This document shows positions 14,881 through 42,070 of a DNA stretch of 53,581 bases, one piece after another. Every line of letters begins with the position of its first letter. Within the stretch, counting starts at the first letter, position 1. Source of the DNA: a virus (Duplodnaviria; Caudoviricetes); IMG/VR virus record IMGVR_UViG_3300032223_002826, positions 1-53,581 of that record; one strand, 5' to 3'. The notes under the pieces were generated by a model. That model ran no database searches. It saw nothing but the letters and a program-made list of their open reading frames with translations, and had not been told where the DNA came from. Made by a program: the position numbers and the translations under genes.

Positions 14881-15112
14881 TCTTGACTCCTGCGCTCTTG
14901 GCACTCTGAGGATCTAAAGCCTCGATCCAAACATTTGGATCAACTTCAGCCCCGGTATCTGCGTCTAGACGATAGCCCTTATGGTATGCATTTAGGCACC
15001 ACTCTGGTCGATCGTCTGGGATCTCAACAACTCCATCTACTACGGGAACTTCCCCATCGTAGAAGTAAAGCGCTAGATCTACCTTGTACAACATGTGCTT
15101 TAACTTTGCCAT
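14705..15112 (-). CDS. hypothetical head-associated protein with disordered C-terminus overlapping the glycosyltransferase gene
   Basis: AAAGGAG RBS; directly after the capsid gene. Confidence 0.7.
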   Translation of the reverse strand: MAKLKHMLYKVDLALYFYDGEVPVVDGVVEIPDDRPEWCLNAYHKGYRLDADTGAEVDPNVWIEALDPQSAKSAGVKSESTDSGRQPILEDGVRSSAQDGDGSLPEQGLGSGNGDGAADSASEDRPARKTVRTKK

Positions 15113-26699: not shown

Positions 26700-27005
26700 T
26701 ACGCTCTATACCCCTATACCAGTATAGTATATATAATATATATAACATAGTATAGGTATTAGTATGTATAACGCGTATAGCGCTTATATCCTTTATCTCC
26801 TTATCCCTACCTATCACCCTTATCCTCTTATTGCTATTAGAAGGGCTCATATGCTTAGTAGTACTTAGACACTATAAGCCAATAAACGCCTCTCCTAGGG
26901 CTTCCTAGGGGCTTCTGAGGGCATTATAACCCTAGGTCGTAAATACAAAAATAATACAAAAATAATCAATATCCCCTCGACTTTTAAAACGACATGTATT
27001 TTGTT
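26700..27005. other. AT-rich tract, candidate origin unwinding element
   Basis: TA runs, repeated TTATC(C/T) and AATACAAAAAT x2; sits between divergent transcription units next to the motif array. Confidence 0.45.
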
Positions 27006-28169
27006 TAGTCACCAGCGCACTAATAAATGGGGTGGTTTGGAGCCCCCCAAAGGGGGGCTAACCAAGCACGAAGGGATCACGGCTTACCTACGCCGACCCT
27101 TACAACGCGTGCAGGAGCGCGCGCTAAATACCATGACGCGCACGAAGGCAGGTGCGCGCGGAGCGAGCACGGTAGTTTTACGCGTGCGGTAATCGCGCAG
27201 GAAACTACGCGCCTAGGTAGGCGCCTCAAGGTATCCCGAAGGGATACAAACCGCGCGAGCGTAGCGCCTAGGGGTGCATGCGGGAATACCTTGTCGCGCG
27301 CTCAAGGCGTGCGACTTACCTTGTCGCGCACGCGAGGGTACGCGTGGTTTACCTCGTCGCGGGTAGGGGCGCATGGGGTTCCTTGTCGCGCGCGCAGGCA
27401 TGGGGTTTCCTCGTCGCGGGTAGGGGCGCGTTTCCTTGTCGCGGGCGTAGGGGTAGGCGCCTTGCGCGCGGTCAAGGATAAATAACACGCGCACGGAAAA
27501 CGGCGCCCGTTGTCGCGCAGGGTTTTTACGCCTAGGCGCGCAGGGATTCTTTGACGCGGGCGTAGGCGCCTAGGCACGCGCGAAAAGGAAATCAGGCGGG
27601 CGTGGTTCATTGACGCGGGCGCGTACACCCCCGCAGGCGCGGCAAGGAAAAACACGCGCGCAGGGTTCTTTGACGCGCGTATGGGCGTAGGCGCGCGCGG
27701 AGAATAGTAAACACGCGCGTAGGCGCCCAGCGCGCGGAAATGGATAAATAACACGCGTACATGCGCACGCGTAGAAAACCCTGCGCGGTTGATCTGCGCG
27801 GGGTTTTACGCCTAGGCGCGCGGCAAGGAAGTTGCCCGCACGGGATTCCTTGGCACGCGTGCGGGTATGCGCCTATGCGCGGCAAGGAAAACATGCGCCC
27901 GTGCGGTTCATTGACGCGCCCACGGGCATGCACGCGCACGCGTAGAAGGAAAACCGCAGGCGCAGGAAAACCGCGCAGGATTGATCTGCGCGTGGTTTTT
28001 ACACGCAGGCGCGTGATTTTCATTTCTGCGCGTGCAGGGGTAGGCATGCGCGCGCGTCAAGGAAAACCTGCGGGCGTGTATGCCTAGGGGCGCGTCAATG
28101 AATCCTGCAGGGGCATGGAGACCGCAGGGAGCAACGCCCGCAGTCTCCGTGCGCCGCGCGAAGGCAAAA

Positions 28170-28216
28170 CAACCCCCTAAAGGGGGTTGACAAACCAAAA
28201 TCCGCCGTGGGATGCT
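28170..28216 (+). promoter_or_regulatory. sigma70-type promoter with hairpin overlapping -35
   Basis: CAACCCCC-TAAA-GGGGGTTG, TTGACA 28187, 18 nt, TGn-GATGCT. Confidence 0.65.
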
Positions 28217-28276
28217 TGCAAAAGCAACGCCGATGACGGCGGAGCACAAGTCCCCCGAAGGGGGAAGGAGGGCAAC

Positions 28277-28549
28277 ATGACCGAAGCGAAGATGAGCACT
28301 AAGACCCTACGGGTCTTTTTCGGCTCGGCAAGCGATGACGGCGACCTGAACGAGACCGAAGGTCTCGCGGAGCGGCTTGCCGCTCGGATCGGCTTCTCCG
28401 AAGCCTATGAGACCTCTTGGGTTGATGGATCTCCGAAGGAGATCATGAGCAATGCTCGGTATCGTGAAGCCATCGCCGTGCTCTTTACTGGCGATGGCTT
28501 CGGCTTGTGCTTGATCCCCGAAGCCGTCGTCATGGCTCGCCTAGCCTGA
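28277..28549 (+). CDS. early hypothetical protein (90 aa)
   Basis: AGGAGG RBS, own promoter and terminator. Confidence 0.8.
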   Translation: MTEAKMSTKTLRVFFGSASDDGDLNETEGLAERLAARIGFSEAYETSWVDGSPKEIMSNARYREAIAVLFTGDGFGLCLIPEAVVMARLA

Positions 28550-28566
28550 TCCCCTTCGGGGATCCG

Positions 28567-28601
28567 CCCCCTGATCCCTTCGGGGATCAGGGGGTTTTTT
28601 T
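28567..28601 (+). terminator. intrinsic terminator
   Basis: CCCCTGATCCC-TTCG-GGGATCAGGGG then TTTTTTT. Confidence 0.9.
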
Positions 28602-29573
28602 ATTCCCTTCGGGAATAAAACACGCGCGTATACGCGCCTCAAGGATAGTTATCCTTGAGGCGCCCGCAGGCACATATACGCACGCGCCTCAAGGAATATA
28701 TATTCCTTGCCGCGTAGCGCGGGCGCTTTTCATTGCCGCGCAGCGGGCGCGCTTTTCATTGTCGCGGGCGCATACACGCGCCCCTGCACGCGTAAAAAAG
28801 AACACCCGTGCTTAGGCGGATCTGAAGACTTTCACTTTAGTGAAAGTCTTCTTTACGCACCTGACTGACTACCAGCGACGCGGCTAGGCTAAACCTTCGC
28901 GCGGAGATCAAACGCGCGAGGTTTTTACGCGTGTTTTTCCTTGTCGCGCGCAGAGGCACCGAAGCAGGCGCGAAGACTGAAATCCGCACCCTAAAAACGG
29001 CGCGGGACTAAGTCGCACAGGGTTTTGTGAAGCCATCCGAAGCGCTGCCAATGCCGACGGCGTGGTTTTGGATTCCCCTTAGGGGAATCTCCGAAGCGGT
29101 CGGCAAGGGCTGCTAAAACCCCCTGAAAGGGGGTTTTCCGACACGCTAAGCGGTGTTTGGGCTTTGGGTAGGGTTCTCCCCTTCGGGGAGAAAAAACCGC
29201 GTTTATGCTCGCTTTTCATTGTCGCGCGCTCAACGCGCCCGCGCACGCGGATAAATGAACCGCGCTCCAAAAACAGCGCGCAGTAAACGGCGCCCAGTTT
29301 TTGAGTAGCCACGCGGAAATCAACTAACGCGCGCAGGTGTATACGCGCGCACGCGCGTAAAAGGAAATAACGCGCGCTACTTAGACGCGCCAGCGAACAC
29401 ACCTAGCGACGCGCCCGTGCACATATATACGCATGTACGCGCGCGCCTAACGCGCGAGCGCAGGGCTACGGCTCGTAAAACTCCGCAGAGTTTTACAGCG
29501 CGCAGGGCTGAAGAGAGCAAAATCCTACGGATTTTGCGACTTCGCAACGCAGGCACGCGCGCGAGTATCCGAC

Positions 29574-29701
29574 CGCTTTTTCTTTGCGAAGAAAAAGCGA
29601 CTTCATCGCTATACCCTAAAGGGTATAGCGATGTCATCCCTTTACTCCAAGAGGAGTAAAGGGATGTTTTCTATTCTCGTGGCAATCGTAGATTGCCACG
29701 A
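29574..29701. repeat. four tandem perfect inverted repeats
   Basis: CGCTTTTTCTT/AAGAAAAAGCG; CATCGCTATACCC/GGGTATAGCGATG; CATCCCTTTACTCC/GGAGTAAAGGGATG; TCGTGGCAATC-GTA-GATTGCCACGA. Confidence 0.9.
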
Positions 29702-29906
29702 TAATAGGGATTTGCGGCGATTTGAGGCTGCCGACCCCCCTTTTTGGGCTGCCATGGCTCCCCCTTTTCCAAACGAGCCTATCCCTCGTTCTTTTACTTC
29801 GGTGTAAACACCTCGTAAAATAACTTCGGTCTAGGCTCGTTTGCGTGCGCGCTCGGGGGCGCAAAAGTTTTGCGCGCCTCATGATGCGCAAGCGCGTAGC
29901 GCGTAA

Positions 29907-29977
29907 GTGTGTGCGCGTGTACATGTGCGCGTATACGCGTATACATGTGCGCGTATATGTGTACATATGCGCGCGTG
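29907..29977. repeat. 71-bp perfect alternating purine-pyrimidine tract
   Basis: GTGTGTGCGCGTGTACATGTGCGCGTATACGCG...ATATGCGCGCGTG without a break. Confidence 0.9.
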
Positions 29978-30135
29978 GAAAGGCTGAATATTTTTCGTAG
30001 AAAAATATTTTATATGTGCATAATGCGAAGGGACGCCATGATGTGAGCAGCGTTCAGAATCTCTTTTTTCAGTAAGAAAAAGAGATTTTACTACGCGCGT
30101 ATTTATACGCATGCGACGCATACGCGCATCACACG

Positions 30136-30217
30136 GCGTGTCAATACTAAATACCTTCGGTATTTACCCTTACTTCGTAAGGGTCGTATTGACACGCGAG
30201 GAAGGCTCTGGGATTGT
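30136..30217 (+). promoter_or_regulatory. T-shaped palindromic element A plus promoter (TTGACA 30189, 17 nt, TGn-GATTGT)
   Basis: 12-bp outer arms enclosing two 19-nt triloop hairpins. Confidence 0.8.
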
Positions 30218-30265
30218 TGTTGAGGAAGCGGCGCCAAATCGCCGCATCGGATCGGAGGTCTCGCA

Positions 30266-30643
30266 ATGGCTAGGACAGCACGAACACTCGTCAAGCAGCA
30301 CACTCTGGTTGCAACCACATATGAGGCAGCGGTTCTCGCCGCAACTATTGCCCCCTACGGGGCAAATGCGATTGCCCTTGACACTGATGGGGTAATCGCC
30401 GCAGTAGTCTATAAGACTACTTGCGGTTGGCAGATTGAGCGTTCCGCCGATTGCCCTTGGGCAATCCGTGGTCTTGTGATGCAGTTTACTGCATCACATA
30501 TGCTCATGAAGGATGCGATTCGCCGCCTTCGCCAGATTCAGCGCCTCGCCGTTGCAGATCCTAATGAGGATCTGCATGAGTACGAGGAGGATGAGACCAA
30601 TACCTATAAGGTATTGTGCAACAAGTGCAACCAGTATGCCTGA
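30266..30643 (+). CDS. early hypothetical protein with C-terminal Cys/His motif
   Basis: GGAGG RBS; 125 aa. Confidence 0.75.
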   Translation: MARTARTLVKQHTLVATTYEAAVLAATIAPYGANAIALDTDGVIAAVVYKTTCGWQIERSADCPWAIRGLVMQFTASHMLMKDAIRRLRQIQRLAVADPNEDLHEYEEDETNTYKVLCNKCNQYA

Positions 30644-30707
30644 TCCCTTTGGGATCAGATACAATCGCCCCTCCCCTTCGGGGGAGGGGCAAGCAGGAGG
30701 TGTAAAC

Positions 30708-31085
30708 ATGGCGGAATCCCTTCGGGATTATGTTCTTGCAAACGGCGGTGCAACTATTCTCCTTGAGAATAGTTCGCCATACACTGCAGAAAACGGCTAC
30801 GCCGTTGGCGTTGCGACTGGCACATACTTTCGGGTACCAGTTGCTACAGCAACTGCAGAGCAACTTGGAGCGCTTGTGAATAATATCAAGGATATTATTC
30901 ATCTAGGCGGCACGATTCTTGACGAAGCCAACGCAGTTGGCTTTTGGGTGAATGATGGATGGATCCACATTGACCCAGTGCAGATCGTCCCTTCGGGACG
31001 AGACGCCATCAACCTAGGGTATGAGCGAAAGCAGGAAGCGATCTATGACTTCCGTAGGAAGTCAGAAATCTTCTTGCCCCGCTAA
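30708..31085 (+). CDS. early hypothetical protein
   Basis: AGGAGG RBS, start MAESLRDY; GFW..DG.I.ID...A...G..RKQEAIYD. Confidence 0.8.
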   Translation: MAESLRDYVLANGGATILLENSSPYTAENGYAVGVATGTYFRVPVATATAEQLGALVNNIKDIIHLGGTILDEANAVGFWVNDGWIHIDPVQIVPSGRDAINLGYERKQEAIYDFRRKSEIFLPR

Positions 31086-31105
31086 TCCCAAAGGGATTAC
31101 CAAAG

Positions 31106-31129
31106 CCCCGCCCTCTTCGGAGGGCGGGG
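31106..31129 (+). terminator. UUCG hairpin at operon end
   Basis: CCCCGCCCTC-TTCG-GAGGGCGGGG; no U-tract. Confidence 0.5.
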
Positions 31130-31353
31130 TGAGCACATATATGTAGAGGTGTGTGCATACACCTAGCCGTATGCACACACTCCTGCAGATATGCAGGCGC
31201 ACACACATACACGCGTGCGGGCGCGCACGCACGCACACACGCGTACATACGCGCGTAAAAACCTCTCCAAAAAAACAAAGTTTTTTTAGTAGGGGCAGTG
31301 CTAGTAGCGACGCGGATCGGAAGCAATCCCTAAAGGGATTGGGAAGGAGAAAC

Positions 31354-31644
31354 ATGCAGAAAAACGATCACAGTCAGGTAGGTTATACGCAGGAGCAAAT
31401 CAATAAGTTCATGGAAATGCATACCCTTGTCGTAGACAAGGAAGCGATGCAGGCTCTTCGTGATGAAGTCAAATGGCTTCGTGAGGTGATCGCCAATCTC
31501 CGTAAGGAGATTGATAACCTCCAAGCAGAGAAGTTGCCTATGGCAACTTGTGCCGCTTGCCACGAAGACTTTCCACATAACAAAGTTATGTGGGTCGCCA
31601 ATCGCTACGAATGCGAATGGTGCTACGAGCGCTTGTCCATATGA
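31354..31644 (+). CDS. coiled-coil plus zinc-finger protein
   Basis: AAGGAG RBS; heptad stretch; CAAC...CEWC. Confidence 0.75.
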   Translation: MQKNDHSQVGYTQEQINKFMEMHTLVVDKEAMQALRDEVKWLREVIANLRKEIDNLQAEKLPMATCAACHEDFPHNKVMWVANRYECEWCYERLSI

Positions 31645-31651
31645 GCGCACA

Positions 31652-31732
31652 CTTGTCAAGACTAAAACCCTACGGGTTTTACCTATACGAAGTATAGGTC
31701 GTCTTGACAAGCGGGAAGGGTTGCCGTACCTT
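31652..31732 (+). promoter_or_regulatory. T-shaped palindromic element B plus promoter (TTGACA 31704, 17 nt, TACCTT)
   Basis: 11-bp outer arms enclosing two 19-nt triloop hairpins. Confidence 0.8.
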
Positions 31733-31802
31733 GGAAATCGTCAAGCCGCCGACGGCAAACGGCGGAGATCGGTAAGTGCCCTAAAGGGCAAGGAGGTCGC
31801 TC

Positions 31803-32297
31803 ATGTCGCTCAACTGGAATGTTGCAAAGGTAGCAGACGGAGTCTGCTGGGAGCCTAAGTTTGACAGCAAGGGCAACCCCGTCATCGGAGATGACGGCAA
31901 GCAGGTTGAGACTATGCGTTGGGAAACGGATGCGCTCATCTGGCAGACGATGATAATCGGGCTCAACAACATTACCGAAGGTAATGTGGATGAATGGGTC
32001 TACCGATTGTCGCTTCTCGCGGTGTTGGACAACGGAGTTGGGACTCGCTTTGTTGATGACAAATGGGTTCGGACTTATCTGACGGAGTCAGATGTTCGCC
32101 GCCACATTGGGCTCTATACGAATGCGACGCAGCAAACTCGTAAAGAGTTTGAGAAGCGATTCCTTGAGTGGGTTCACGAAAGGGGTATCGGCACCCTTCG
32201 GGATGCCGAAGAGGATCAGGCAGACTTTGAGCAGCGCCACACCTATGTCGTAGACAAGGGATGGTACTCGGTTGAGAAGTTGGCGGAAGCAATCTAG
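31803..32297 (+). CDS. early hypothetical protein
   Basis: AGGAGG RBS; 164 aa. Confidence 0.8.
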   Translation: MSLNWNVAKVADGVCWEPKFDSKGNPVIGDDGKQVETMRWETDALIWQTMIIGLNNITEGNVDEWVYRLSLLAVLDNGVGTRFVDDKWVRTYLTESDVRRHIGLYTNATQQTRKEFEKRFLEWVHERGIGTLRDAEEDQADFEQRHTYVVDKGWYSVEKLAEAI

Positions 32298-32327
32298 CAA
32301 TGCCCCTTCGGGGCAAGGAGGTACAAC

Positions 32328-32882
32328 ATGACGGACACTGAAGTTCTACACCCTGAAGGGTGTAAGGTAGACGGCGCAACTTGTATCTCATGCAATGAGC
32401 ATGAGTGCGACACCTCTAGCACGGATTGGCAGTATGCCAATCGTCAAGAAGGTTGGCTCTGCTACTCCTGCTATTGCTCCGACACTGAACATGGTTCAGT
32501 GATCACGACGATTGAGCAGGACGGGACGGAGTCCCGTACGCTTATCGGGGATTATGTGGCGATGGACGCGGAGTTTGGCGACTTCGTGAATAGCGAGAAT
32601 GTGGTTCGCGAATACCATCGTACCGATGGTTGGCGAGGACACTACTGCACAACCCTAAAGGGTTGGACGGAAGTTGAGGATGGCGTTGCCCTTGCTGGCA
32701 TGCCGACTCCTGCTACTGATCTTGCAAGCAAGATCAAGGATGCACAAGAGGAGGGTTTCTTGCCTTGCAAGATTGCCATCATCTCCGATCCTACGAGCAA
32801 TGTGTTCTCGGTTGGCGTGTCCTTCTTCGTAGAAGAAGGCAATGAGGAAGTGTTTACCCAATGGGTAAAGGAGGTTGCATGA
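32328..32882 (+). CDS. early hypothetical protein with Cys-rich N-terminus
   Basis: AGGAGG RBS; CISC...CYSC. Confidence 0.8.
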   Translation: MTDTEVLHPEGCKVDGATCISCNEHECDTSSTDWQYANRQEGWLCYSCYCSDTEHGSVITTIEQDGTESRTLIGDYVAMDAEFGDFVNSENVVREYHRTDGWRGHYCTTLKGWTEVEDGVALAGMPTPATDLASKIKDAQEEGFLPCKIAIISDPTSNVFSVGVSFFVEEGNEEVFTQWVKEVA

Positions 32883-33094
32883 GCAAGGTTTTGTGCCATC
32901 GTTGCAATAAAACGATCCGTAAGGATCGTGTCTTCATGCTGTTGTTCACCCCATTCCATAAGGAATGTGCCATGATCTTCGGCGGGATGATGATTATGGC
33001 AACTCCCGATCCTATAGATCGGGATATTCTTACCCGTATTGTGTACGGCGACAAAGTCGCCGACAACATCAAAAACAAGGAGGTGCAAGCATGA
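32879..33094 (+). CDS. small zinc-binding protein
   Basis: ATGA coupling; CHRC...HKEC. Confidence 0.7.
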   Translation: MSKVLCHRCNKTIRKDRVFMLLFTPFHKECAMIFGGMMIMATPDPIDRDILTRIVYGDKVADNIKNKEVQA

Positions 33095-33354
33095 ATCGGA
33101 TCGCTATCATCATTCTGATGATTATGGCTGCTTTTGTTGGGTTCTTTTTGCCGCCATCAGCCGCCGTTGAGACGCTTCTCAACGGCGAACACTTCCGACA
33201 AAACTACCCTGATGGTAGTTTTATGGTTGGTGTTATCTACTACGACGAAGTCGTAGGGGATCGTTGCGCAATGGGAACAATGCACACCGCTGATGGCAAG
33301 GTTTACAACCTTGACAAGTGGTGCGGCGATGACCTACTCCCCGTTGGGGAGTAG
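33091..33354 (+). CDS. small membrane-anchored or secreted protein
   Basis: AGGAGG RBS; hydrophobic N-terminus MNRIAIIILMIMAAFVGFFL. Confidence 0.7.
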   Translation: MNRIAIIILMIMAAFVGFFLPPSAAVETLLNGEHFRQNYPDGSFMVGVIYYDEVVGDRCAMGTMHTADGKVYNLDKWCGDDLLPVGE

Positions 33355-33557
33355 CGCTTTGCTCACACCCCTGCCCTCTATGTGAGGGTAGGAGCGTGTG
33401 CAATCGCACATGGTGTATGTATATGCATACGCACATATACACATGGGCGCGCGTATACGCACGCGCTCGCTCGCGCACATATACGCGCGGGAAAAAGTTG
33501 GAAAACCAACTAGCATGACGGCATAGGTTAGCGACGCGTAAGAAAAGCGACGCAGCC

Positions 33558-33605
33558 CAATCCCCCTAAAGGGGGTTGACAACCAGTTTTTTGAGATGCT
33601 ATCAT
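33558..33605 (+). promoter_or_regulatory. sigma70-type promoter with hairpin at -35
   Basis: CCCCC-TAAA-GGGGG, TTGACA 33576, 18 nt, TGn-TATCAT. Confidence 0.85.
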
Positions 33606-33651
33606 GTATATAGGCGAGGGAAGTCCCCTTGGCAGATCGGGAGGTGCAAAC

Positions 33652-34074
33652 ATGAAGGTTCTGAAGGTATCGCTAAGCAACGAGGATGTTGCAGGCATTA
33701 TTCATACCGCCGTTGAGGGTGGTACGAACTACTGGGGCGAAGTGCGCGGCTACAAGTGGACGACTTGGTATGAACCAGACCCCGAAAAGTCGTACGACGA
33801 CGAGTATGGATCGTACAAGGCGGAGCGTGTCAAGGGTCTCCCCAAAGACTTTGTCTTTGTTGAGATTCGCGAGGATGAGGATCTTACTGATCCTGAACGC
33901 AAACCGAATACTTGGTTCCCTCTTACAAGGGAAGCGATTGAGCGAGGAGTTTGCATGGTTCTTGAGAACCATGGGCACCTTATCAACATTCGGGATGGCG
34001 AGATTGACACTGATGCCTACGGCGCCGATGCCATCGTTCAGATGGCAGTGTTCGGTGAACTCGTCTATGGGTGA
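33652..34074 (+). CDS. early hypothetical protein
   Basis: GGAGG RBS; EGGTNYW and DA..ADAIVQ.AVFGELVYG. Confidence 0.8.
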   Translation: MKVLKVSLSNEDVAGIIHTAVEGGTNYWGEVRGYKWTTWYEPDPEKSYDDEYGSYKAERVKGLPKDFVFVEIREDEDLTDPERKPNTWFPLTREAIERGVCMVLENHGHLINIRDGEIDTDAYGADAIVQMAVFGELVYG

Positions 34075-34243
34075 GCGATGGGAGCAGCGAGCGGCGGCGC
34101 GAGATGCCAAGCGCCGTCGCCGCAACAATCCGATGGACACCTTCTATCAGAAGGTATGGCACGATATTGATCGGCTACGAGCCGATCGCAACAAGGAGGT
34201 GCGACATGATCGTAAGGGCACACGCTCGTCAACGACTCGCTGA
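34067..34243 (+). CDS. possible small Arg-rich protein
   Basis: fills the gap between two genes; weak RBS. Confidence 0.35.
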   Translation: MGERWEQRAAARDAKRRRRNNPMDTFYQKVWHDIDRLRADRNKEVRHDRKGTRSSTTR

Positions 34244-34514
34244 GCGTCTATCTGCTGCAGAGCAGCAGCAGGCTATCAGTCATGCTGCTCAGATCGCCCC
34301 TTCCGTAAGGAAGGGAGATGGAGTGGCAGCCGTGCTTCTCCGACTGGAGAAGCGACGCAACAATGGCAAGCGCTCCGTTTCTAACGGAGACATGGTTGTC
34401 GGCATCATTCGGGATGGCGAACTTATCACCATCATGATGCGCCGCGCTAGTCAGGTATTGGACGCAGCGACGCTACGCGTTCAGCAAGTGGTTGATGCAA
34501 CATTGGCGGCATGA
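34206..34514 (+). CDS. HAxxRxxER-motif protein (possible RelE/DUF4258-like fold)
   Basis: AGGAGG RBS; HARQRLAER...VVGIIRDGELITIM. Confidence 0.6.
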   Translation: MIVRAHARQRLAERLSAAEQQQAISHAAQIAPSVRKGDGVAAVLLRLEKRRNNGKRSVSNGDMVVGIIRDGELITIMMRRASQVLDAATLRVQQVVDATLAA

Positions 34515-34518
34515 AAAC

Positions 34519-34567
34519 CAATCCCCCACAAGGGGGGTTGACAAGCCGAAAAACGGCAGGTTATCAT
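34519..34567 (+). promoter_or_regulatory. sigma70-type promoter with hairpin at -35
   Basis: TTGACA 34538, 18 nt, TATCAT 34562. Confidence 0.85.
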
Positions 34568-34573
34568 GTATAT

Positions 34574-34890
34574 ACACGAGACGGCTTCATCGGCTGTCTC
34601 GGATCGGCTCGGTACCAACAGGTTCCTAGGACTGCTGTTGGACTGAGCACGGGGTGAGATTGGACGAGCGAGCGATCCGCAGCCCTAAGTGCGGAAGAGA
34701 GGCATGGCAGAGCGATGGCAACTAGGACAGACGCTGTAAGTCTGGGAGTTGTAGGTGGTTCGGTTGTAGCCGACGGGCATGACAACCGAGCAGCCAACGA
34801 GCGGCGTATCGCTACCGACGGGTGGCGATGCGTTGCTCGGATCGTGGCGGAAGGGTGCATACGAAAGTTCAGCCCCTTCCGCCACCATTG
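34574..34890 (+). ncRNA. candidate structured non-coding RNA or long leader
   Basis: directly after a promoter; at least six helices with many G-U pairs; the first strong RBS is at 34907. Confidence 0.65.
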
Positions 34891-34918
34891 TTTGGAAAAC
34901 AAAAGTAGGAGGTGCAAC

Positions 34919-35197
34919 ATGGGGTACGCAACGGCAATCGGCATAGCCGATAGTGGATTGGATTTGGATGTTCAGTTGCAGTGGCATTTCACGAGCAACT
35001 GCTACCCGCCTATTCCGCTCGGAATGATTGAGCCAGCAAAGGCAGCCATTGCGCTTGCGCAAAGTGGCGAGTCGGACAAGATGGTAGCGATGCCAGAAGG
35101 CGTTGAGCACCGAAAGTATGGGACGCAGGTTCCTGCATGGGTGCTCATTCATTCGCTGCACTTGGAAGCATTCGCAGACGCAAGCGAGGAGGAGTAA
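34919..35197 (+). CDS. early hypothetical protein
   Basis: AGGAGGTGCAAC-ATG. Confidence 0.8.
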   Translation: MGYATAIGIADSGLDLDVQLQWHFTSNCYPPIPLGMIEPAKAAIALAQSGESDKMVAMPEGVEHRKYGTQVPAWVLIHSLHLEAFADASEEE

Positions 35198-35199
35198 GC

Positions 35200-35469
35200 A
35201 TGTATAAGCATATTGGTTGCAACAGGAACATTGGCGTTGGCTTGACAGCCAAAGCGATTGTCAACCTAACGACAACCTCATATGACAAGGAAAAGTTCTG
35301 GCTTGAAGAGCCAGAAGGCATGAGCGAAGATCTCGTAGAGATCATTGGTATTTATTGCTATGAGTGCAACGAAACAATCAAGGAGATTGAACCCGTTGAC
35401 CTTCAGACCTTTGAGAGCGAGATGTCCATTGGCGCGCATAACGATGTGCTAACATGGGACGCCGACTAG
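35200..35469 (+). CDS. hypothetical protein
   Basis: GGAGGAG RBS; HIGC...CYEC. Confidence 0.7.
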   Translation: MYKHIGCNRNIGVGLTAKAIVNLTTTSYDKEKFWLEEPEGMSEDLVEIIGIYCYECNETIKEIEPVDLQTFESEMSIGAHNDVLTWDAD

Positions 35470-35481
35470 TCGGCGTTTTGC

Positions 35482-35510
35482 TTGACAAGGTTTTTGGCAG
35501 ACTGTATCAT
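35482..35510 (+). promoter_or_regulatory. sigma70-type promoter
   Basis: TTGACA, 17 nt, TATCAT; preceded by GCCGACTAGTCGGC palindrome. Confidence 0.85.
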
Positions 35511-35554
35511 ATAGGTATGCGAGGGACAATCTCTCGCCAAGTAGGAGGTGCAAC

Positions 35555-35911
35555 ATGGATCGGAAGAATGGTCGCTATCGGGTTGGTAGCGTTGGAGTTG
35601 ATGCAGGTATGGTCATGGTCGGAGACCCTTGCTACCTAGACAAGTTCACAGATCACGACTTTGACGACGCAAAGGTAGAGGCGCAAAAGGCGAATGGCAA
35701 GTACGAATACTCGTACAGCGGCGCTTGCGCCGCAACGCTATCGGACAATAGCGCAGGTGAGTTGGGTAATGCTGATGCCGTTGCGGTAAGCAGTGGGTAC
35801 GGCGACGGGGTTTACCCCGTCTTCGCAACTTACAATCATGATGGTCGTATCGTCAAGTTGGAAGTCATCTTTGATGGCGACCATGGCGACGAAGACAGCG
35901 ACGAAAAGTAA
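35555..35911 (+). CDS. DUF4241-like protein
   Basis: VGVDAG.VMVGDPCY and VSSGYGDGVYPV. Confidence 0.7.
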   Translation: MDRKNGRYRVGSVGVDAGMVMVGDPCYLDKFTDHDFDDAKVEAQKANGKYEYSYSGACAATLSDNSAGELGNADAVAVSSGYGDGVYPVFATYNHDGRIVKLEVIFDGDHGDEDSDEK

Positions 35912-35925
35912 GCAGGAGGTGCAAC

Positions 35926-36249
35926 ATGGCTAACCCAGAAGACGCAGACTACACGCCGTGCCAGAAGTGCGGCAATGAGTGGGCTGAAACACTCCATCAG
36001 GAGTGTGGCATCGTTTGTGAAGAGTGCTACAACGCATGGAAGGAGCCAGACATGGGAACAACCTATAGGGTTGTGCGAATGTACTTTGAGGATCACCCTC
36101 GCAAGGTGATTGTTGCTGGCAAGACGCTGGAGGAGGTTCAGCGCTGGTGCAGCGACCCAGACACGAGCAGCAGCACGACAACGAGCGAAGCAGGAAAAGC
36201 CCATACTGAAAAGTATGGGGCATGGTTTGACGGATACGAGGAGGAATAG
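35926..36249 (+). CDS. hypothetical protein with N-terminal zinc finger
   Basis: AGGAGG RBS; CQKC..CEEC; TLEEVQRWC.DP.TSS. Confidence 0.75.
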   Translation: MANPEDADYTPCQKCGNEWAETLHQECGIVCEECYNAWKEPDMGTTYRVVRMYFEDHPRKVIVAGKTLEEVQRWCSDPDTSSSTTTSEAGKAHTEKYGAWFDGYEEE

Positions 36250-36251
36250 GA

Positions 36252-36542
36252 ATGTCGGCGGATATCAATCAAAAACGCTTCCTTGTGAAGTATCACACAA
36301 TGGTTGTCAAGCATCTGCTCGTTTGGGCGGATGACGAAAGCGATGCAGAGGGGCGCCTCATGACCACGGATTCGGAGTTGTTTTTCTCCCCTTCTGGGGA
36401 GGAAGATCTTCGTGCCCTTGGCATTGAGGTGCTCGGCGACGAACCCGCTGGTCATGGGTACGCAGAAGCGATATCCCTTGGCGAGGTTGACGAAAAAAAG
36501 TCAGTTGACAGCAATACGATTGTGGTCAAGGAGGGCGAGTGA
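36252..36542 (+). CDS. hypothetical protein
   Basis: operonic 96-aa ORF. Confidence 0.65.
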   Translation: MSADINQKRFLVKYHTMVVKHLLVWADDESDAEGRLMTTDSELFFSPSGEEDLRALGIEVLGDEPAGHGYAEAISLGEVDEKKSVDSNTIVVKEGE

Positions 36543-36787
36543 ACAGGCTCACATTGGACGGACAGAACAGCGTGCAGGTCATGGGCTTCACAGCCCATGA
36601 TGTGCAGGAACTTGCATACGAGGCAGGCTATGAGATCAGCCGCGAAGAAGCGAACGCGTTTCTTGCGCAGCATTCCATAAAGTTTCGCAACAAGATGGTG
36701 GAGTTCGGCAACGAACTCCTTGAGCAGATGATGTTTGGCGGCGAGCCGAACGATTTGACAGCAGCAAAGCAGGCTGCTAATATGTAG
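36539..36787 (+). CDS. hypothetical protein
   Basis: GTGA coupling, AGGAGG RBS. Confidence 0.7.
   Translation: MNRLTLDGQNSVQVMGFTAHDVQELAYEAGYEISREEANAFLAQHSIKFRNKMVEFGNELLEQMMFGGEPNDLTAAKQAANM
36755..36783 (+). promoter_or_regulatory. sigma70-type promoter
   Basis: TTGACA, 17 nt, TGn-TAATAT. Confidence 0.75.
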
Positions 36788-36826
36788 GTATCATGCATTT
36801 GCATGAGTAAGCATAGGAGGTGTGTT

Positions 36827-37300
36827 ATGGCAGGCGAATGGAAGAATATCCACGATGAGTCGCCACGGGGCGATATTACGATTTCGGTGCTTGCGACAAC
36901 CGTGGATGAGGATGAGTCGGACTACTGGTCAAACAACTACAATGTGTTGTTTGAGCGCAACTATCAGGGGATTGTATACTCGTACCATCTTACGATGGAG
37001 GATGCAATCAAGAACGAGCGCCCAGTGTTTGAGCAGTGCTATTACTATGACCTCTGGCTCTACGAGGGAGAGCCTTCGGCTAACATCGGCAGCAATCGCA
37101 ACAAGTATCTTGATGCGATTCATAAGTGCGGTGTTGAAGATGGCAACCCTAAGTCCTACGGACTTATCTCGCACGATTGCAAGGATTGCGCCTTGGCAAT
37201 CTGGTGGGAAGAGTACCAAGACGGCAATGCATCCTATGAGGATGCAGAAAAGTATATGGACGAGCATAAGTATGCTCTTCTCAAGGAGGTGCAATCATGA
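36827..37300 (+). CDS. acidic Tyr-rich hypothetical protein
   Basis: AGGAGG RBS, start MAGEWKN. Confidence 0.75.
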   Translation: MAGEWKNIHDESPRGDITISVLATTVDEDESDYWSNNYNVLFERNYQGIVYSYHLTMEDAIKNERPVFEQCYYYDLWLYEGEPSANIGSNRNKYLDAIHKCGVEDGNPKSYGLISHDCKDCALAIWWEEYQDGNASYEDAEKYMDEHKYALLKEVQS

Positions 37301-37554
37301 CGATCCTAACGAACGAACAGGTTCAGCGACGGTCTGAGCAGTTAGCGCTCGGCTTTGCGCTCACGGATTGGGGAGACCTAACCTATGAGCAGGCAATCAG
37401 CGCATTGGAAGCCGCAGGCAATGACAGTTTTGCGTTTCCCGATCCGATTGTGCCATGGGAGGCATTTGAGCATTGGAGCCCGCAATCGGTAGCCAACGAG
37501 ATTGATGGCATGCGAGCCGCAATCTATCTGGCTTTCAGCCAAGAAGAGGCGTAG
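37297..37554 (+). CDS. acidic hypothetical protein
   Basis: ATGA coupling, AGGAGG RBS. Confidence 0.75.
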   Translation: MTILTNEQVQRRSEQLALGFALTDWGDLTYEQAISALEAAGNDSFAFPDPIVPWEAFEHWSPQSVANEIDGMRAAIYLAFSQEEA

Positions 37555-37555
37555 C

Positions 37556-37729
37556 ATGAGTGGCAAGAAAACTGAGTGGGCGGAGCAACCAGATGAGCCG
37601 CGATGTCCGAACAACACGCGACATGGCGAACTTGTGCCGCACGAAAAGGGCGGATATGTTTGCCGCGATTGTGAGTCTGCCCACACCAAGCGCTCTCGTG
37701 TAGCGTATCGCTTCTCCGTGCCTAGGTAG
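37556..37729 (+). CDS. small zinc-ribbon protein
   Basis: CP....H...YVCRDC. Confidence 0.55.
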   Translation: MSGKKTEWAEQPDEPRCPNNTRHGELVPHEKGGYVCRDCESAHTKRSRVAYRFSVPR

Positions 37730-37872
37730 GCACTCGCCCCCTCGCGGGGGCGGATCGCGTGGTGCGCGGGCACTTCCCGCACCACGCATAACGCATGCAC
37801 TCGCGCGCGTTATATTTCTTCAATCAAACGCCTCCGCTGCAAAAGTAGCGACGCGGTGTTTTGCCATGCGGT

Positions 37873-37902
37873 TTGACAGGGTTGGAGTTGGGGTGCTAAT
37901 AT
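37873..37902 (+). promoter_or_regulatory. sigma70-type promoter of ardC
   Basis: TTGACA, 18 nt, TGn-TAATAT. Confidence 0.8.
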
Positions 37903-37945
37903 GTATGAGTAGGTGCTTACCTACGCAAGAGAAGGAGGTGCTCAG

Positions 37946-38818
37946 ATGAGCAACAAGGTTTACGAGGTGATCGCCGAAAGCATCACCAATGCACTGGACA
38001 AAGGCGTCGTGCCATGGCGCAAGCCGTGGAACGCGGAGCAGATGACGCCACGCAACATGAAGGGCGTGCCGTATCGTGGCATCAATGTGTGGTTGCTCAT
38101 GCTGCAGGGTCATGGTAGCCCGTATTGGGCAACCTACAAGCAGGTCAACGAGGCTGGCGGCACGATTGTGGCAGGCGCAGAAGGTACGCCTATTGTGTTC
38201 TGGTCGCGCTACGAGGTTGAAGACGAGAATGCAGGCGGCGAAAAAACCGTCAAGAGCATCCCTGTGATTCGCTACTACAAGGTGTTCAATCAGTCGCAGA
38301 TCAAGGGCATTGAGTTCCCTCCGCTGCCTACGGTAGGCAAGAGCGAGTTCTCGCCGATTGAGGCTGCAGAGCGTGTGATTTCATCTATGCCAAAGCGCCC
38401 AGACATTAGCGATAATGGTGGAGCCAAGGCGTATTATGTCCCCTCGCAGGATAGTATTCACATGCCAAGCAAGGATACCTTTGAGAGCGCAAATGGGTAT
38501 TATGCGACGCTCTTCCACGAGATGGCGCATAGCACTGGGCATTCGTCTCGCCTCGCTCGCAAGAGCGTTGATGAAGCGGCGCCATTCGGTAGCGACATCT
38601 ACGCTCAGGAAGAGTTGATTGCTGAGTTTGCTTCGGCGTTCCTCTGCGGAGAGACTGGCATCTCGCCGTCGGTGATTGAGAACGCTGCAGCATATATTGC
38701 TGGCTGGAAGCGAGCGATCAAGGACGACACCCGTGCCGTGATCTCCGCAGCAAGCAAGGCGCAGAAGGCGGCTGACTACATCCTCGGACGGGAGGATGCA
38801 GTTGCCAAGGCAGCGTAG
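37946..38818 (+). CDS. ardC: ArdC-family antirestriction / ssDNA-binding zincin protein
   Basis: GVVPWRKPW, YRGIN..LL, WATYKQ, VFN..Q, AYY.P..D.I.MP, TLFHEMAHSTGH, YA.EELIAE, AAYIAGW. Confidence 0.93.
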   Translation: MSNKVYEVIAESITNALDKGVVPWRKPWNAEQMTPRNMKGVPYRGINVWLLMLQGHGSPYWATYKQVNEAGGTIVAGAEGTPIVFWSRYEVEDENAGGEKTVKSIPVIRYYKVFNQSQIKGIEFPPLPTVGKSEFSPIEAAERVISSMPKRPDISDNGGAKAYYVPSQDSIHMPSKDTFESANGYYATLFHEMAHSTGHSSRLARKSVDEAAPFGSDIYAQEELIAEFASAFLCGETGISPSVIENAAAYIAGWKRAIKDDTRAVISAASKAQKAADYILGREDAVAKAA

Positions 38819-38963
38819 TCGCTGCAACACATGCTTCCGTCCGAGCGAAGGCTCGGAGTGCAGGAAGTGCAAAGGCAAGCGAGAGGCGGCGGAGATTGTC
38901 CGTCGCCTCATCGCAGAGTTAGAGAAGGAGATTCAGGATGGCAAACAGCGAGTTCAAGATTGA
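38796..38963 (+). CDS. small zinc-finger protein (55 aa, below the ORF-track cutoff)
   Basis: MQLPRQRSRCNTCFRPSEGSECRKCK...; start uncertain (alternative TTG 38802). Confidence 0.5.
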   Translation: MQLPRQRSRCNTCFRPSEGSECRKCKGKREAAEIVRRLIAELEKEIQDGKQRVQD

Positions 38964-39237
38964 GGATTTCATGAACGCAGTCGCAGAGGTTATGGGGTTC
39001 GGCAGCGCGTGGAGTAAGGACATTGACGGCACAATCGTGGAAGAGAATATCTTCTTCCATGGGGCTGAGGTATCCGATGATAATGGTCGCGTACATGTGC
39101 AGTTTGCGCTTTCATATCCAAGCCGAGAGCATTCGGAGGCTGGTCTTGCACTGCTCTTGACGGCAGGCGAGGCTCGTCAGTTCGCCAAGGTTTTCACCGT
39201 AGCGGCAGACCTGCTTGACGCGCAGGAAGGTATCTAG
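38938..39237 (+). CDS. hypothetical protein
   Basis: AAGGAG RBS; 99 aa. Confidence 0.7.
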   Translation: MANSEFKIEDFMNAVAEVMGFGSAWSKDIDGTIVEENIFFHGAEVSDDNGRVHVQFALSYPSREHSEAGLALLLTAGEARQFAKVFTVAADLLDAQEGI

Positions 39238-39243
39238 TACACT
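39215..39243 (+). promoter_or_regulatory. promoter of recombinase
   Basis: TTGACG, 17 nt, TACACT. Confidence 0.65.
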
Positions 39244-39307
39244 CGGGGGCAACCCCGATCGGGTGAGTCTGAGTGGCTCACAAAACGGGTATATAGGAGG
39301 GTGCAAC

Positions 39308-40186
39308 ATGGACATGAACGCAGCAGTCAGCCTATTCGTTAGCCAGCGGCAGTCAAGCGAGACGCGCCGTTCGTATGCTCAGGATCTTGCGCGATGGCAG
39401 TCGTGGCTGGATGAGAAGCAGTTGAGCCCGCAGATTGCGGTGGCGTATCGCGACTATCTTAGCGGCAAGTATGCCTCTGCGACAGCCGCCCGCGCGTTCC
39501 ATACGGTTCGCGTGTTCTATCGCTGGCTGCAATCCGCAGGCATTGTGGCGTCCAATCCGTTTGACGGCATTGAGGCGCCAAAGAAGGTCAAGAATCTAAC
39601 GCCAAAGGTTCCCGCAGATGCGGATATTGAGGCGCTTGTCGCAGCGTCTCTTCGCGAAGATGCGCCCGCTCGCTATGCGGCAGTGATCGCGTTGCTGCTC
39701 AACGGGCTGCGAGCCAGCGAGGTGCGTATGCTTCGCAAGGATGCGATTGAGAAGACGGACTACGGGACGATCCTGCGCGTGGTGGGCAAGGGCGTGAAAG
39801 AGCGCCTTGTGCCAGCAACCAGTGAATCAATCTATGCCTTGCAGCGCTATTGGAGCGACGCGGGAAGCAAGGAGATGAGTTCAGTCTGGGCGTTGCCTGA
39901 TACCAATGGCGAGATGCTCACGGTTCGTCAGGTGCAGCACGCAGTATACAAGTGCGCTGAGTGGGCGGGCATTCATGGGATGCATGCTCACGCCTTGCGG
40001 CATCACTATGCCACGCGGCTAATCCGCAATGGCGCTGGGGTGCTTCAAGTATCTAAGTTGCTTGGGCACTCTCGAGCAGATACCACGCAGGTATATGTGA
40101 CGCTGGACTTGGCAGACCTCGTAGAGGCAGCCAGTGTAGATCCAAGGGCGGTACCTGATAAGCCACGCCTTGTCGCTATCGCATAA
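39308..40186 (+). CDS. XerC/D-like tyrosine recombinase / integrase
   Basis: SAM-like N-terminus; GLRASE, GKG.KER, HALRH, LLGH, TTQVY catalytic set. Confidence 0.93.
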   Translation: MDMNAAVSLFVSQRQSSETRRSYAQDLARWQSWLDEKQLSPQIAVAYRDYLSGKYASATAARAFHTVRVFYRWLQSAGIVASNPFDGIEAPKKVKNLTPKVPADADIEALVAASLREDAPARYAAVIALLLNGLRASEVRMLRKDAIEKTDYGTILRVVGKGVKERLVPATSESIYALQRYWSDAGSKEMSSVWALPDTNGEMLTVRQVQHAVYKCAEWAGIHGMHAHALRHHYATRLIRNGAGVLQVSKLLGHSRADTTQVYVTLDLADLVEAASVDPRAVPDKPRLVAIA

Positions 40187-41493: not shown

Positions 41494-41706
41494 CTACTCC
41501 TCTGCATCCTTACGCCTGAACAACCGAGACATAGGGATCTCCCTTCGGTAGACCACTCGTCGCTGTCGCTCCTCGCTGAGGACACCTACTTCGCGCAAGG
41601 ATTTTCCTTGCGCATTTGATGCCTGCGTGAGCAGGCATTCTGTCATTGCCTCCAAATCTTGGAGGTCAGGCATTGGCGGCATCGGCTTTACCTTGCGGCG
41701 TGCCAT
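41494..41706 (-). CDS. hypothetical protein
   Basis: GAGG RBS; fills operon gap. Confidence 0.6.
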   Translation of the reverse strand: MARRKVKPMPPMPDLQDLEAMTECLLTQASNAQGKSLREVGVLSEERQRRVVYRREIPMSRLFRRKDAEE

Positions 41707-42070
41707 CGTTCAACCTCTTTACCGCTTTCTTGGCGGCTCGACTGCGTCGCTGCCGTAAGGCAGCGGGGGTTGCAGTGGTGAAATCAGTAGCCTGCTCTGC
41801 CTTCAGGCTATCTGCCCACCCTGTAAGAGCCACTCTATCGGCGGTCGACATCTCCGTTAGCATTTCCTCTGCCTCAAGGAGGTCAAGATGAAAATCGTTT
41901 CCAATCGCTGACGGATACGAGAAGTCAATACCAACGCGATTGTATCCCTGAAGGATGATGCTGCCACCGTGATTCTTCAAGGCTGAGCGAATCGCGTGGC
42001 GCTCAGCAAGCAGGCGAAGAAAGTACTTCGTCGTGTATGAGAGCGCTTTGATTTCAGTTGCGTTTGCCAT
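41666..42070 (-). CDS. sigma-factor region-4-like HTH protein, possible late activator
   Basis: LDL.EA..ML..MS..DR..L......ATPAALRQRRSRAAKK. Confidence 0.5.
   Translation of the reverse strand: MANATEIKALSYTTKYFLRLLAERHAIRSALKNHGGSIILQGYNRVGIDFSYPSAIGNDFHLDLLEAEEMLTEMSTADRVALTGWADSLKAEQATDFTTATPAALRQRRSRAAKKAVKRLNDGTPQGKADAANA

Follow-up and report, generated by a model that had tools for sequence, protein, structure and literature searches.

Natural promoters that depend on an extruded DNA structure are, to our knowledge, confined to very few cases, above all those of phage N4, where a dedicated polymerase reads them. Here, we describe two elements, A (30136-30197) and B (31652-31711), in an uncultured phage of the Caudoviricetes. 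The stretch of DNA analysed, called the window in the following, is the whole virus record IMGVR_UViG_3300032223_002826, a single contig of 53,581 bp, to which all positions refer. Each element is a nested palindrome that can fold into a three-way junction and carries the hexamer TTGACA in its outer stem. As a tentative interpretation, we suggest that A and B may be DNA-level promoter elements which depend on topology and lie within a larger domain of non-B DNA.

The part of the N4 study used here (PMC4496689) describes small hairpins with loops of three nucleotides (nt) ahead of the earliest genes, which extrude from supercoiled duplex DNA and keep their structure while non-conserved stem bases vary. 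According to the same source, a C:G closing pair as well as a 5' G and a 3' A in the loop are needed for extrusion, and an N4 hairpin inserted into an E. coli promoter switches this promoter off in a gyrase-dependent manner (PMC4496689). A and B resemble these hairpins in the small size, the loops of 3 nt, the C:G closing pair, the 5' G and 3' A of the loop on one strand, the position ahead of the earliest genes and a structure that is kept while stem bases vary. They differ in their architecture, as the N4 hairpins are single, with stems of 5-7 bp, whereas A and B each consist of two 8-bp hairpins inside an outer stem with a host-type -35 box. Furthermore, the N4 hairpin is itself the promoter for an injected polymerase of about 3500 residues (PMC4496689). 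No RNA polymerase family, and hence no giant virion RNA polymerase, was found when 60 open reading frame (ORF) translations of the window were scanned against Pfam. The largest ORFs comprise 966, 887 and 882 amino acids (aa) and all match tail proteins.

A similar geometry is known from the telomeres of Streptomyces. In the excerpt consulted (PMC5449611), the structure named 'Rabbit Ears' has a 13-bp outer duplex, formed by palindromes I and IV, which encloses two hairpins (II and III) whose GNA triloops contain sheared G:A pairs. There, however, the fold stands at the 3' terminus of a linear replicon capped by a terminal protein and serves end patching by Tap and Tpg (PMC5449611), whereas A and B lie within the genome, 1.5 kb from each other, both ahead of operons and pointing the same way. 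The 60 translations scanned include no match to a terminal protein or Tap family. Streptomyces telomeres are also reported to act as promoters.

A third point of comparison is provided by the PeSLs of T4-type phages, which combine a repeated intergenic stem-loop with a sigma-70-type early promoter and a Shine-Dalgarno sequence and flank small ORFans in an early variable region, much as in the present block (PMC4122927, PMC2839356). As far as these two papers were covered, a PeSL is a plain RNA-terminator hairpin upstream of an AT-rich region with a full-consensus promoter (PMC4122927, PMC2839356). A and B, in contrast, are three-way junctions that contain the -35 box, lack a U-run and have a weak -10 box, and the phage is not T4-like. 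Measured against the PeSL layout, A and B show a perfect -35, a -10 with 3 of 6 matches, a structure overlapping the -35 and ORFans as flanking genes; consensus promoters of the same genome, between 33576 and 37873, fit better. Horwitz and Loeb reportedly described in 1988 a cruciform-regulated E. coli promoter with a mutant or engineered simple palindrome and superhelicity-dependent output; as in A and B, the palindrome lies over promoter elements. A literature search on branched cruciform promoters and hairpin-rich phage early regions, with supplementary files outside its scope, returned nothing pertinent, and we did not find the arrangement of A and B within a hairpin-rich early region described.

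The two elements are composed as follows.

30136-30147, + strand: left outer arm of element A, GCGTGTCAATAC, complement of the -35 arm
30148-30166: inner hairpin 1 of element A, 8-bp stem, loop TTC (GAA on the - strand), C:G closing pair
30166-30184: inner hairpin 2 of element A, 8-bp stem, loop TTC (GAA on the - strand), with A30166 common to both hairpins
30185: unpaired C of element A
30186-30197, + strand: right outer arm of element A, GTATTGACACGC, with TTGACA at 30189-30194 as putative -35
31652-31662, + strand: left outer arm of element B, CTTGTCAAGAC, beginning 8 nt past the stop codon of ORF 31354-31644
31663-31681: inner hairpin 1 of element B, 8-bp stem, loop TAC (GTA on the - strand)
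31681-31699: inner hairpin 2 of element B, 8-bp stem, A31681 shared, loop GAA on the + strand (flipped relative to A)
31700: unpaired C of element B
31701-31711, + strand: right outer arm of element B, with TTGACA at 31704-31709 as putative -35

In both copies the outer stem has 11-12 bp and encloses 38 nt, which comprise two 8-bp triloop hairpins with one A in common and a single unpaired C. An earlier note on this DNA had described this identical geometry, and folding as single-stranded DNA (ssDNA) agrees with it: the T shape is the minimum free energy as well as the centroid structure on both strands of A and B, with energies of -21.7/-22.1 kcal/mol for A and -19.3/-19.7 kcal/mol for B and z-scores from -8.1 to -10.2. 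None of 200 shuffled sequences folds as well as A or B. As RNA, the corresponding energies are -31.7 (A) and -28.8 kcal/mol (B). The fold of A and B is real and far beyond chance.

Over 62 alignment columns the two copies are 86% identical (14% divergence). To the left, their homology does not go beyond the outer stem, and to the right it continues for about 12 nt past it; conservation is strongest in the outer arms, TGTCAA-N-AC and GT-N-TTGACA. A pattern made from the positions shared by A and B has two matches in the genome and none in 100 shuffles. We propose that A and B are paralogous copies of one promoter module, which would serve the first two operons of the rightward early block. Within the alignment, 53 of 54 cells pair; six of the 27 pairs are changed on both sides and none on one side only, while a control with the pairing partner slid by 1-3 columns leaves only 23-40% of the cells paired. 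The claims that differences within the stems are compensatory and that structure is kept over sequence hold up in this comparison. A shuffle control for covariation, in which 11 of 500 shuffles reach the observed values, is weak because only two sequences are available.

All four inner hairpins follow the scheme C-NNN-G with GAA or GTA on one strand. While the loops of the first hairpins (TTC and TAC) differ only in the free middle base, those of the second hairpins (TTC and GAA) differ by a flip of the whole loop. The GNA loops do switch strand, as had been noticed before: in A both hairpins carry GAA on the - strand, and in B the first carries GTA on the - strand, the second GAA on the + strand.

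Scored with a covariance model derived from the two elements, A and B obtain 90.9 and 89.0 bits and their reverse strands 39.7 and 35.2 bits, the next best site of the genome reaching 20. No Rfam family matches the whole genome at gathering score, and none of the matches at E values up to 1 over 29900-31900 overlaps A or B, so that the elements still do not correspond to a described family. In a whole-genome scan for nested hairpins, long outer stems occur only in A and B. A weaker nested structure with a 7-bp outer stem and two 6-bp hairpins is located at 28360-28415 inside gene 28277-28549, where it competes with a hairpin at 28351-28367.

The hexamer in the right arms probably represents a real -35 box, because three features of the sequence coincide: the similarity to the promoter module at 28187, the distance to the start codon, and the presence of A-11 and T-7 at exactly 17 nt in both A and B. 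The relevant features are the following.

30212-30217, + strand: putative weak -10 of promoter A, GATTGT, 17-nt spacer, 3 of 6 positions matching TATAAT
31727-31732, + strand: putative weak -10 of promoter B, TACCTT, 17-nt spacer, 3 of 6 positions matching TATAAT
28170-28216, + strand: promoter 28187, of the weak -10 class, whose upstream hairpin CAACCCCC-TAAA-GGGGGTTG includes the first three bases of its TTGACA

From TTGACA to ATG there are 77 nt in A and 99 nt in B, each with a strong ribosome-binding site, and 72-90 nt in five of the six other TTGACA promoters. Five of these, at 33576, 34538, 35482, 36755 and 37873 on the + strand, are near the sigma-70 consensus (TTGACA, 17-18 nt, TATCAT or TAATAT) and lie about 72-76 nt ahead of their gene, except for 34538 (177 nt). 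Promoters 33576 and 34538 have a CCCCC-loop-GGGGG hairpin set against the -35, and at 35482 a terminator ends 5 nt before it. The module at 28187 is closer to A, with which it has the -10 region in common (tggGATGCTtg versus tggGATTGTtg). A GC hairpin is found in the leaders of 28187, A and B, followed by the motif GATCGG in A and B and, in 28187 and B, by a second small hairpin before the Shine-Dalgarno site. Since 28187 shares the weak type of -10 and a hairpin that reaches its -35, the two elements appear to belong with it to a second class of promoters, marked by a structure that overlaps the -35. GATCGG recurs in 5' leaders shortly before ribosome-binding sites at 30250, 31315, 31767, 33635 and 34602. 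Leftward promoters from the left arms of A and B were considered and dropped, as no -10 is present.

A and B are the top of a region-wide phenomenon and not isolated oddities. We scanned for hairpins with a perfect stem of at least 7 bp and a loop of 3-4 nt, and took the expectation from shuffling within 1-kb blocks. The genome has 111 such hairpins, most of them in a single field:

27000-34500: hairpin field, 78 perfect hairpins with stems of 7-14 bp and loops of 3-4 nt, in coding as well as non-coding DNA

For this interval 0.82 hairpins are expected (maximum 2 in 50 shuffles). The density amounts to 10-15 per kb at 28-33 kb and falls on both sides, with A and B at the peak. A tail of the field reaches to about 38000, and a small cluster is found at 41593-41765. 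With the same scanner T7 yields 0.05 hairpins per kb, the first 50 kb of N4 0.52 and the first 50 kb of T5 0.72, with never more than three in one kb, and the field is 15-30 times as dense as N4 or T5. Loci of phages with a 48-66% identical terminase contain 0-0.77 perfect hairpins per kb. In the ORFs between 30266 and 34514, hairpins take up 9-37% of the sequence and occur in each of the three frames.

With this field in view, it can be weighed whether A and B are operators, where a repressor, as dimer or tetramer, would bind ordinary B-DNA and cover the -35. It is common for an operator to overlap a -35, and the outer arms around TTGACA are indeed what A and B conserve best. A protein that tolerates either base, however, would not need six symmetric, compensated pair changes. 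The four inner palindromes differ in sequence and are all perfect, hairpins of the same type occur about 80 times, also inside genes, and the Pfam scan of the 60 translations revealed neither a helix-turn-helix nor any other regulator family. We consider a duplex operator highly improbable.

The question whether the structures matter as DNA or as RNA is less easily answered. Triloops make up 51 of the 78 field hairpins, 40 of these 51 being closed by C:G, and on the + strand 30 of them read GNA (18) or TNC (12). The C-GNA-G mini-hairpin is extraordinarily stable as DNA. Imperfect stems are rare, with five field hairpins listed that have an internal mismatch. At the first unpaired position of the 78 hairpins GT/TG (11) is not commoner than AC/CA (14), so that the G.U signature of one transcribed strand is missing. 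Taken together, the strand symmetry of the field, the absence of a G.T bias, the C:G-closed GNA/TNC triloops, whole-loop inversions between strains (see below) and the Z-DNA-prone tracts of the region favour selection on DNA over selection on RNA, as far as sequence features can tell.

The competing possibility is that A and B are composite cassettes similar to the PeSLs, in which an RNA three-way junction forms the 3' end of the upstream transcript and the DNA palindrome is merely its template. The RNA would then act as attenuator, 3' protector or processing site, and the next promoter would be packed so tightly that its -35 falls into the outer stem. B, which begins 8 nt behind a stop codon, is positioned as this requires, and behind the other ORFs of the block, too, a hairpin comes within about 25 nt (30640-30690, 31083-31129, 32301-32315, 32912-32929 and 33334-33354). 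A hairpin or terminator stands directly ahead of the -35 at promoters 28187, 33576, 34538 and 35482, the RNA folds of A and B are very stable, and the tetraloops TTCG (3) and GTAA (3) occur on the + strand only, their complements not being seen in the field. Cassettes of a stem-loop and a sigma-70 early promoter flanking ORFans are what the cited parts of the PeSL papers report (PMC4122927, PMC2839356).

This explanation meets several difficulties. The outer stems of A and B are not followed by a U-run, for which reason an intrinsic terminator was dropped as a candidate, and A has neither an ORF nor a recognisable promoter ahead of it. There is no G.U pair in the 54 cells of the A/B alignment. 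DNA-stable C-GNA-G triloops dominate on either strand, and loop flips would alter the loop of an RNA. It is also left unexplained why two copies keep a three-way junction where a plain hairpin would suffice. We regard the RNA cassette as a possibility, albeit a doubtful one.

Strain variation was followed over 29700-32400 in four metagenome runs (X2-X5) from two studies which carry variants of the phage; the counts cover the 40 listed variant positions out of 61 variant rows. Although hairpins and T arms make up 29.2% of the stretch, none of the 40 listed variants falls into a stem. The only three located inside hairpins (binomial P about 9e-4), at 29997-29999 in run X3, together convert a GTA loop to TAC, i.e., invert the whole loop. 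Two further loop flips are present in the near-identical strain L003, AGTT to AACT at 28648-28649 and TTA to TAA at 29080. Such whole-loop inversions are a mark of hairpin-mediated template switching or arm recombination in DNA, judging from the sequences. The X3 contig that covers the whole of element A shows no change in it, with all 9 differences there accounted for, and neither does the X2 contig up to 30180, where its coverage of the element stops. For X4 and X5 none of the listed differences falls in A, with 2 and 1 differences, respectively, outside the listing. The flanks of A vary at 30103, 30121, 30122, 30126 and 30203-30208.

The loop flips also speak for a neutral origin. According to this explanation, the promoters work as plain duplex, and the T shape is a functionless nested palindrome left by the process that makes the field, e.g., template switching within a strand of a region that is frequently single-stranded; one of the products was then duplicated. 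The flips, seen three times between close strains, are a mark of such events, and compensated changes can arise from template-switch correction without selection. Hairpins inside genes occur in all frames and turn over between alleles, and the nested structure at 28360-28415 provides a third, weaker case. The turnover is seen in the L003 allele of gene 28277-28549, which is strongly divergent and has different hairpins at different places, while its flanks are 94-98% identical. However, the 40 listed variants spare the stems, and A is invariant between variable flanks. Outer stems of 11-12 bp far exceed chance nesting, and the geometry is kept to the base in both copies despite 14% divergence. 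Relatives with a 58-66% identical terminase are without such a field, which indicates that it is not a general mutational habit of the phage group. Palindromes that form hairpins trigger Lamassu and are cut by SbcCD, as stated in the portion of PMC11707656 relied on here, and useless ones should thus be lost. With palindromes being a liability, the field of 78 hairpins is costly and its abundance argues for a benefit. On balance, we judge a pure by-product unlikely.

A different role at the DNA level would be that of an ssDNA element, with the T folding where the region becomes single-stranded (in replication, recombination or entry) and serving as loading, priming or binding site, in the manner of primosome assembly sites, single-strand promoters or the 'Rabbit Ears', or as substrate of the phage tyrosine recombinase. 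The fold is very stable on both strands as ssDNA, and its geometry is that of the Streptomyces telomere overhang, as far as described in PMC5449611. The phage encodes a DnaB-type helicase, a DnaG-type primase, a clamp-like protein, nucleases and a Xer-like tyrosine recombinase, and an iteron array is located 1-3 kb away. Known single-strand promoters, i.e., Frpo/ssi of conjugative plasmids, the M13 minus-strand origin and the sso of rolling-circle plasmids, have both -35 and -10 in the stem and act on ssDNA. A and B have in common with them a recognition motif of the host polymerase made duplex by intra-strand pairing. Their stem, however, ends 2-3 bp past the -35, and the -10 lies 17 nt on, outside the fold, so that a complete single-strand promoter of the Frpo or M13 kind is not formed; moreover, the replicon is a tailed double-stranded DNA phage. 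Parvovirus terminal repeats form a T with two small triloop arms that exists in flip and flop versions, at a terminal origin nicked by an HUH Rep. The T shape with triloop arms and the sequence inversion between copies are shared, but no HUH Rep, terminal protein or protelomerase is present among the 60 translations scanned, and A and B are internal, not terminal. Both copies, furthermore, stand exactly at promoter distance before operons and in the same orientation. An ssDNA element is, in our assessment, distinctly improbable. Ends of the IS200/IS605 or Helitron type and a parvovirus-like origin were dropped as candidates, since no HUH protein was found among the ORFs scanned.

The supercoil-driven promoter switch remains the best, although unproven, reading of A and B. 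It is set in a region with further non-B potential. All 12 alternating purine-pyrimidine runs of at least 18 nt in the genome are located within 27751-33489, where the following tracts and repeats were recorded.

29907-29977: Z-DNA-prone tract, 71 nt of alternating purine-pyrimidine, 160 bp ahead of A
31197-31257: Z-DNA-prone tract, runs of 23 and 37 nt
33413-33489: Z-DNA-prone tract, runs of 33, 20 and 18 nt, just before promoter 33576
29416-29446, 29337-29359 and 27751-27773: further Z-DNA-prone tracts

Several of these tracts are located just upstream of promoters, and they inflate read depth in metagenome contigs. A repeat array at 27100-29230 contains at least 13 degenerate copies, many of them spaced by about 60 bp; their core, TTC(A/C)TTG(A/T)CGCG, is followed by GC-rich sequence and is similar to the -35 arm of A (ATTGACACGCG). 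The array may represent an origin or a set of binding sites.

The proposed mechanism is as follows. Selection would act on DNA, A and B being part of a 7-kb non-B-DNA domain made of extrudable hairpins and long Z-DNA-prone tracts. Each module would combine a perfect sigma-70-type -35, which forms one arm of the nested palindrome, with a weak -10. On relaxed or just-injected DNA it would be an ordinary duplex promoter. Under high negative superhelicity (about -0.06 by estimate), the inner palindromes would extrude as mini-hairpins with C:G-closed GNA/TNC triloops, of the kind that leaves the supercoiled duplex in N4. Subsequently, the outer arms would pair within each strand and convert 60-62 bp into a cruciform with two T-shaped, three-way-junction arms. 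This would take up about six turns and disrupt the usual geometry upstream of the promoter, whose activity would then depend on DNA topology. That the elements extrude in vivo, in which direction transcription would be affected and that supercoiling is involved are all presumed here. In the twin-domain model, transcription makes negative supercoils behind it, which are concentrated between divergent or downstream promoters. The zone between the leftward structural operon and the five strong rightward promoters should accordingly be a place where they accumulate.

A rough estimate of the energetics was made from nearest-neighbour duplex stacking and ssDNA fold energies, with no bonus for GNA loops or Mg2+. 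Conversion into two T structures would cost about +41 kcal/mol for A and about +40 kcal/mol for B, while removing 62 bp from a supercoiled domain would release roughly 18-22 kcal/mol at a superhelicity (sigma) of -0.03 and 41-45 kcal/mol at -0.06. Full extrusion thus calls for a local superhelicity that is strongly negative, unless the threshold is reduced by Mg2+, by the particular stability of GNA loops or by a protein. The usual unconstrained superhelicity in vivo is roughly -0.03. N4 hairpins extrude at sigma -0.035 with Mg2+, against earlier theory, according to the section cited (PMC4496689).

Relatives that carry the element would allow an independent view, and several searches were made for them. 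Blastn of 29000-33000 against phage records gave no match, and two IUPAC patterns of the element had 0 matches in viral contigs. The looser of the two matched one metagenome contig and one genome contig; both were rejected as chance matches, being without any hairpin. Protein-guided searches with ORFs 31803-32297, 30708-31085 and 32328-32882 found nothing in viral contigs. A terminase search returned 21 loci, 20 of them from phages at 48-66% identity. The covariance model search proposed in the earlier note singles out A and B in their own genome, but it found no match in these 20 loci or in five whole records. T shapes in these loci and records are restricted to two weak 5-bp cases (L008 805-845 and L025 1907-1948), and strain L003 ends at window position 29633, before A.

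A number of observations weigh against a topology-dependent promoter. As no relative with the element was found in these searches, the covariation rests on the comparison of two paralogues, A and B, and template-switch correction can keep perfect palindromes without selection. Being the top of a region-wide phenomenon, both may partly be by-products of whatever makes the field. The count of stem variants covers 40 of 61 rows, B being fully accounted for only in run X2 and least in X3 and X4, and 3 of 19 differences of L003 in 28544-29633 are uncompensated stem changes, which shows that stems are not inviolable. Any DNA palindrome also yields an RNA hairpin once transcribed, and B is located where other ORFs have a 3' hairpin; two of the three TTCG hairpins stand just behind ORFs and the third before a T-run, which looks like punctuation at the RNA level.

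The promoter itself raises doubts as well. The earlier note had placed TTGACA 17 nt from a -10, and hexamer and spacing are present; the -10 boxes, however, are poor. GATTGT and TACCTT agree with TATAAT at just 3 of 6 positions, which keeps both A and B off the list of the promoter scan of the genome. A role at the DNA level, as also put forward there, gains from the hairpin-rich context. A switch that hides or presents the -35 would be a further step, and full extrusion would, by the rough estimate, be balanced only near sigma -0.055 to -0.06, well above the usual value. In the extruded form, moreover, the -35 arm is still a duplex of the same sequence, and 'hiding' is not self-evident; an effect would come from changed geometry rather than from melting of the box.

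In the genome, leftward genes occupy 1-26686 and encode tail fibre, tape measure, tube, capsid, portal, large terminase and a class II ribonucleotide reductase. A G+C-rich, nearly gene-free region follows at 26.7-30.2 kb, and rightward small genes at 30266-40186, the last of which encode ArdC and the Xer-like tyrosine recombinase. The replication genes (DnaB-type helicase, DnaG-type primase, clamp-like protein and nucleases) are located downstream of this block. The terminases of the closest named phages are only 28% identical. The operons behind the two elements are the following.

30266-31085, + strand: operon behind A, ORFs 30266-30643 and 30708-31085, 125 aa each, with strong ribosome-binding sites
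31803-33354, + strand: operon behind B, ORFs 31803-32297, 32328-32882 and 33091-33354

About 32% of each 125-aa ORF behind A lies within perfect hairpins. ORF 31803-32297 is a real gene, as it has relatives at 79, 43 and 39% identity, the first of them encoded on a 7.1-kb contig. The early-operon ORFs behind A and B are without a Pfam family, and Pfam, PHROGs and Atlas gave no functional lead. ORF 31354-31644, which ends ahead of B, encodes a 96-aa coiled-coil protein with two CxxC pairs at its end; in the strain of run X3, 85 nt at 31349-31435, comprising the ribosome-binding site and the start of this ORF, are replaced by 20 other letters. In the structural part, a ferritin-like domain is found inside a 775-aa ORF (16106-18433) between portal and capsid genes, and a GT4 glycosyltransferase at 13708-14904. 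The interval 26700-27000, which separates the repeat array from the start of the ribonucleotide reductase gene, is AT-rich with short repeats of TATA and CCTTATC type and may be a leftward promoter region. No tRNA genes were found in the genome, and the cyanobacterial HIP1 motif, considered as a clue to the host, is not enriched (only 3 copies).

Carried further, the topology-dependent promoter would make the start of the early region a device that reads DNA topology: mini-cruciforms, purine-pyrimidine tracts and the two T cruciforms would buffer or sense superhelicity and set the first two operons on or off. We put this extension forward as a speculation that is unlikely to hold in full. It would mean a regulatory layer laid down in DNA structure instead of protein-binding sites, for which several early genes would have a quarter to a third of their coding sequence constrained, an idea that we likewise think improbable.

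What is new here is a host-type -35 built into a three-way-junction palindrome, present in two compensated copies amid a kilobase-scale field of perfect hairpins that extends through genes and varies from strain to strain by inverted loops. Should the structures form in vivo, the phage would offer a natural system for asking how far DNA topology alone times phage gene expression, a test of phage tolerance for palindromes attacked by SbcCD and Lamassu-type defences, and a case of protein-coding sequence evolving under a strong constraint of DNA structure. If they do not form, the field would still be a striking record of a mutational process that makes palindromes.

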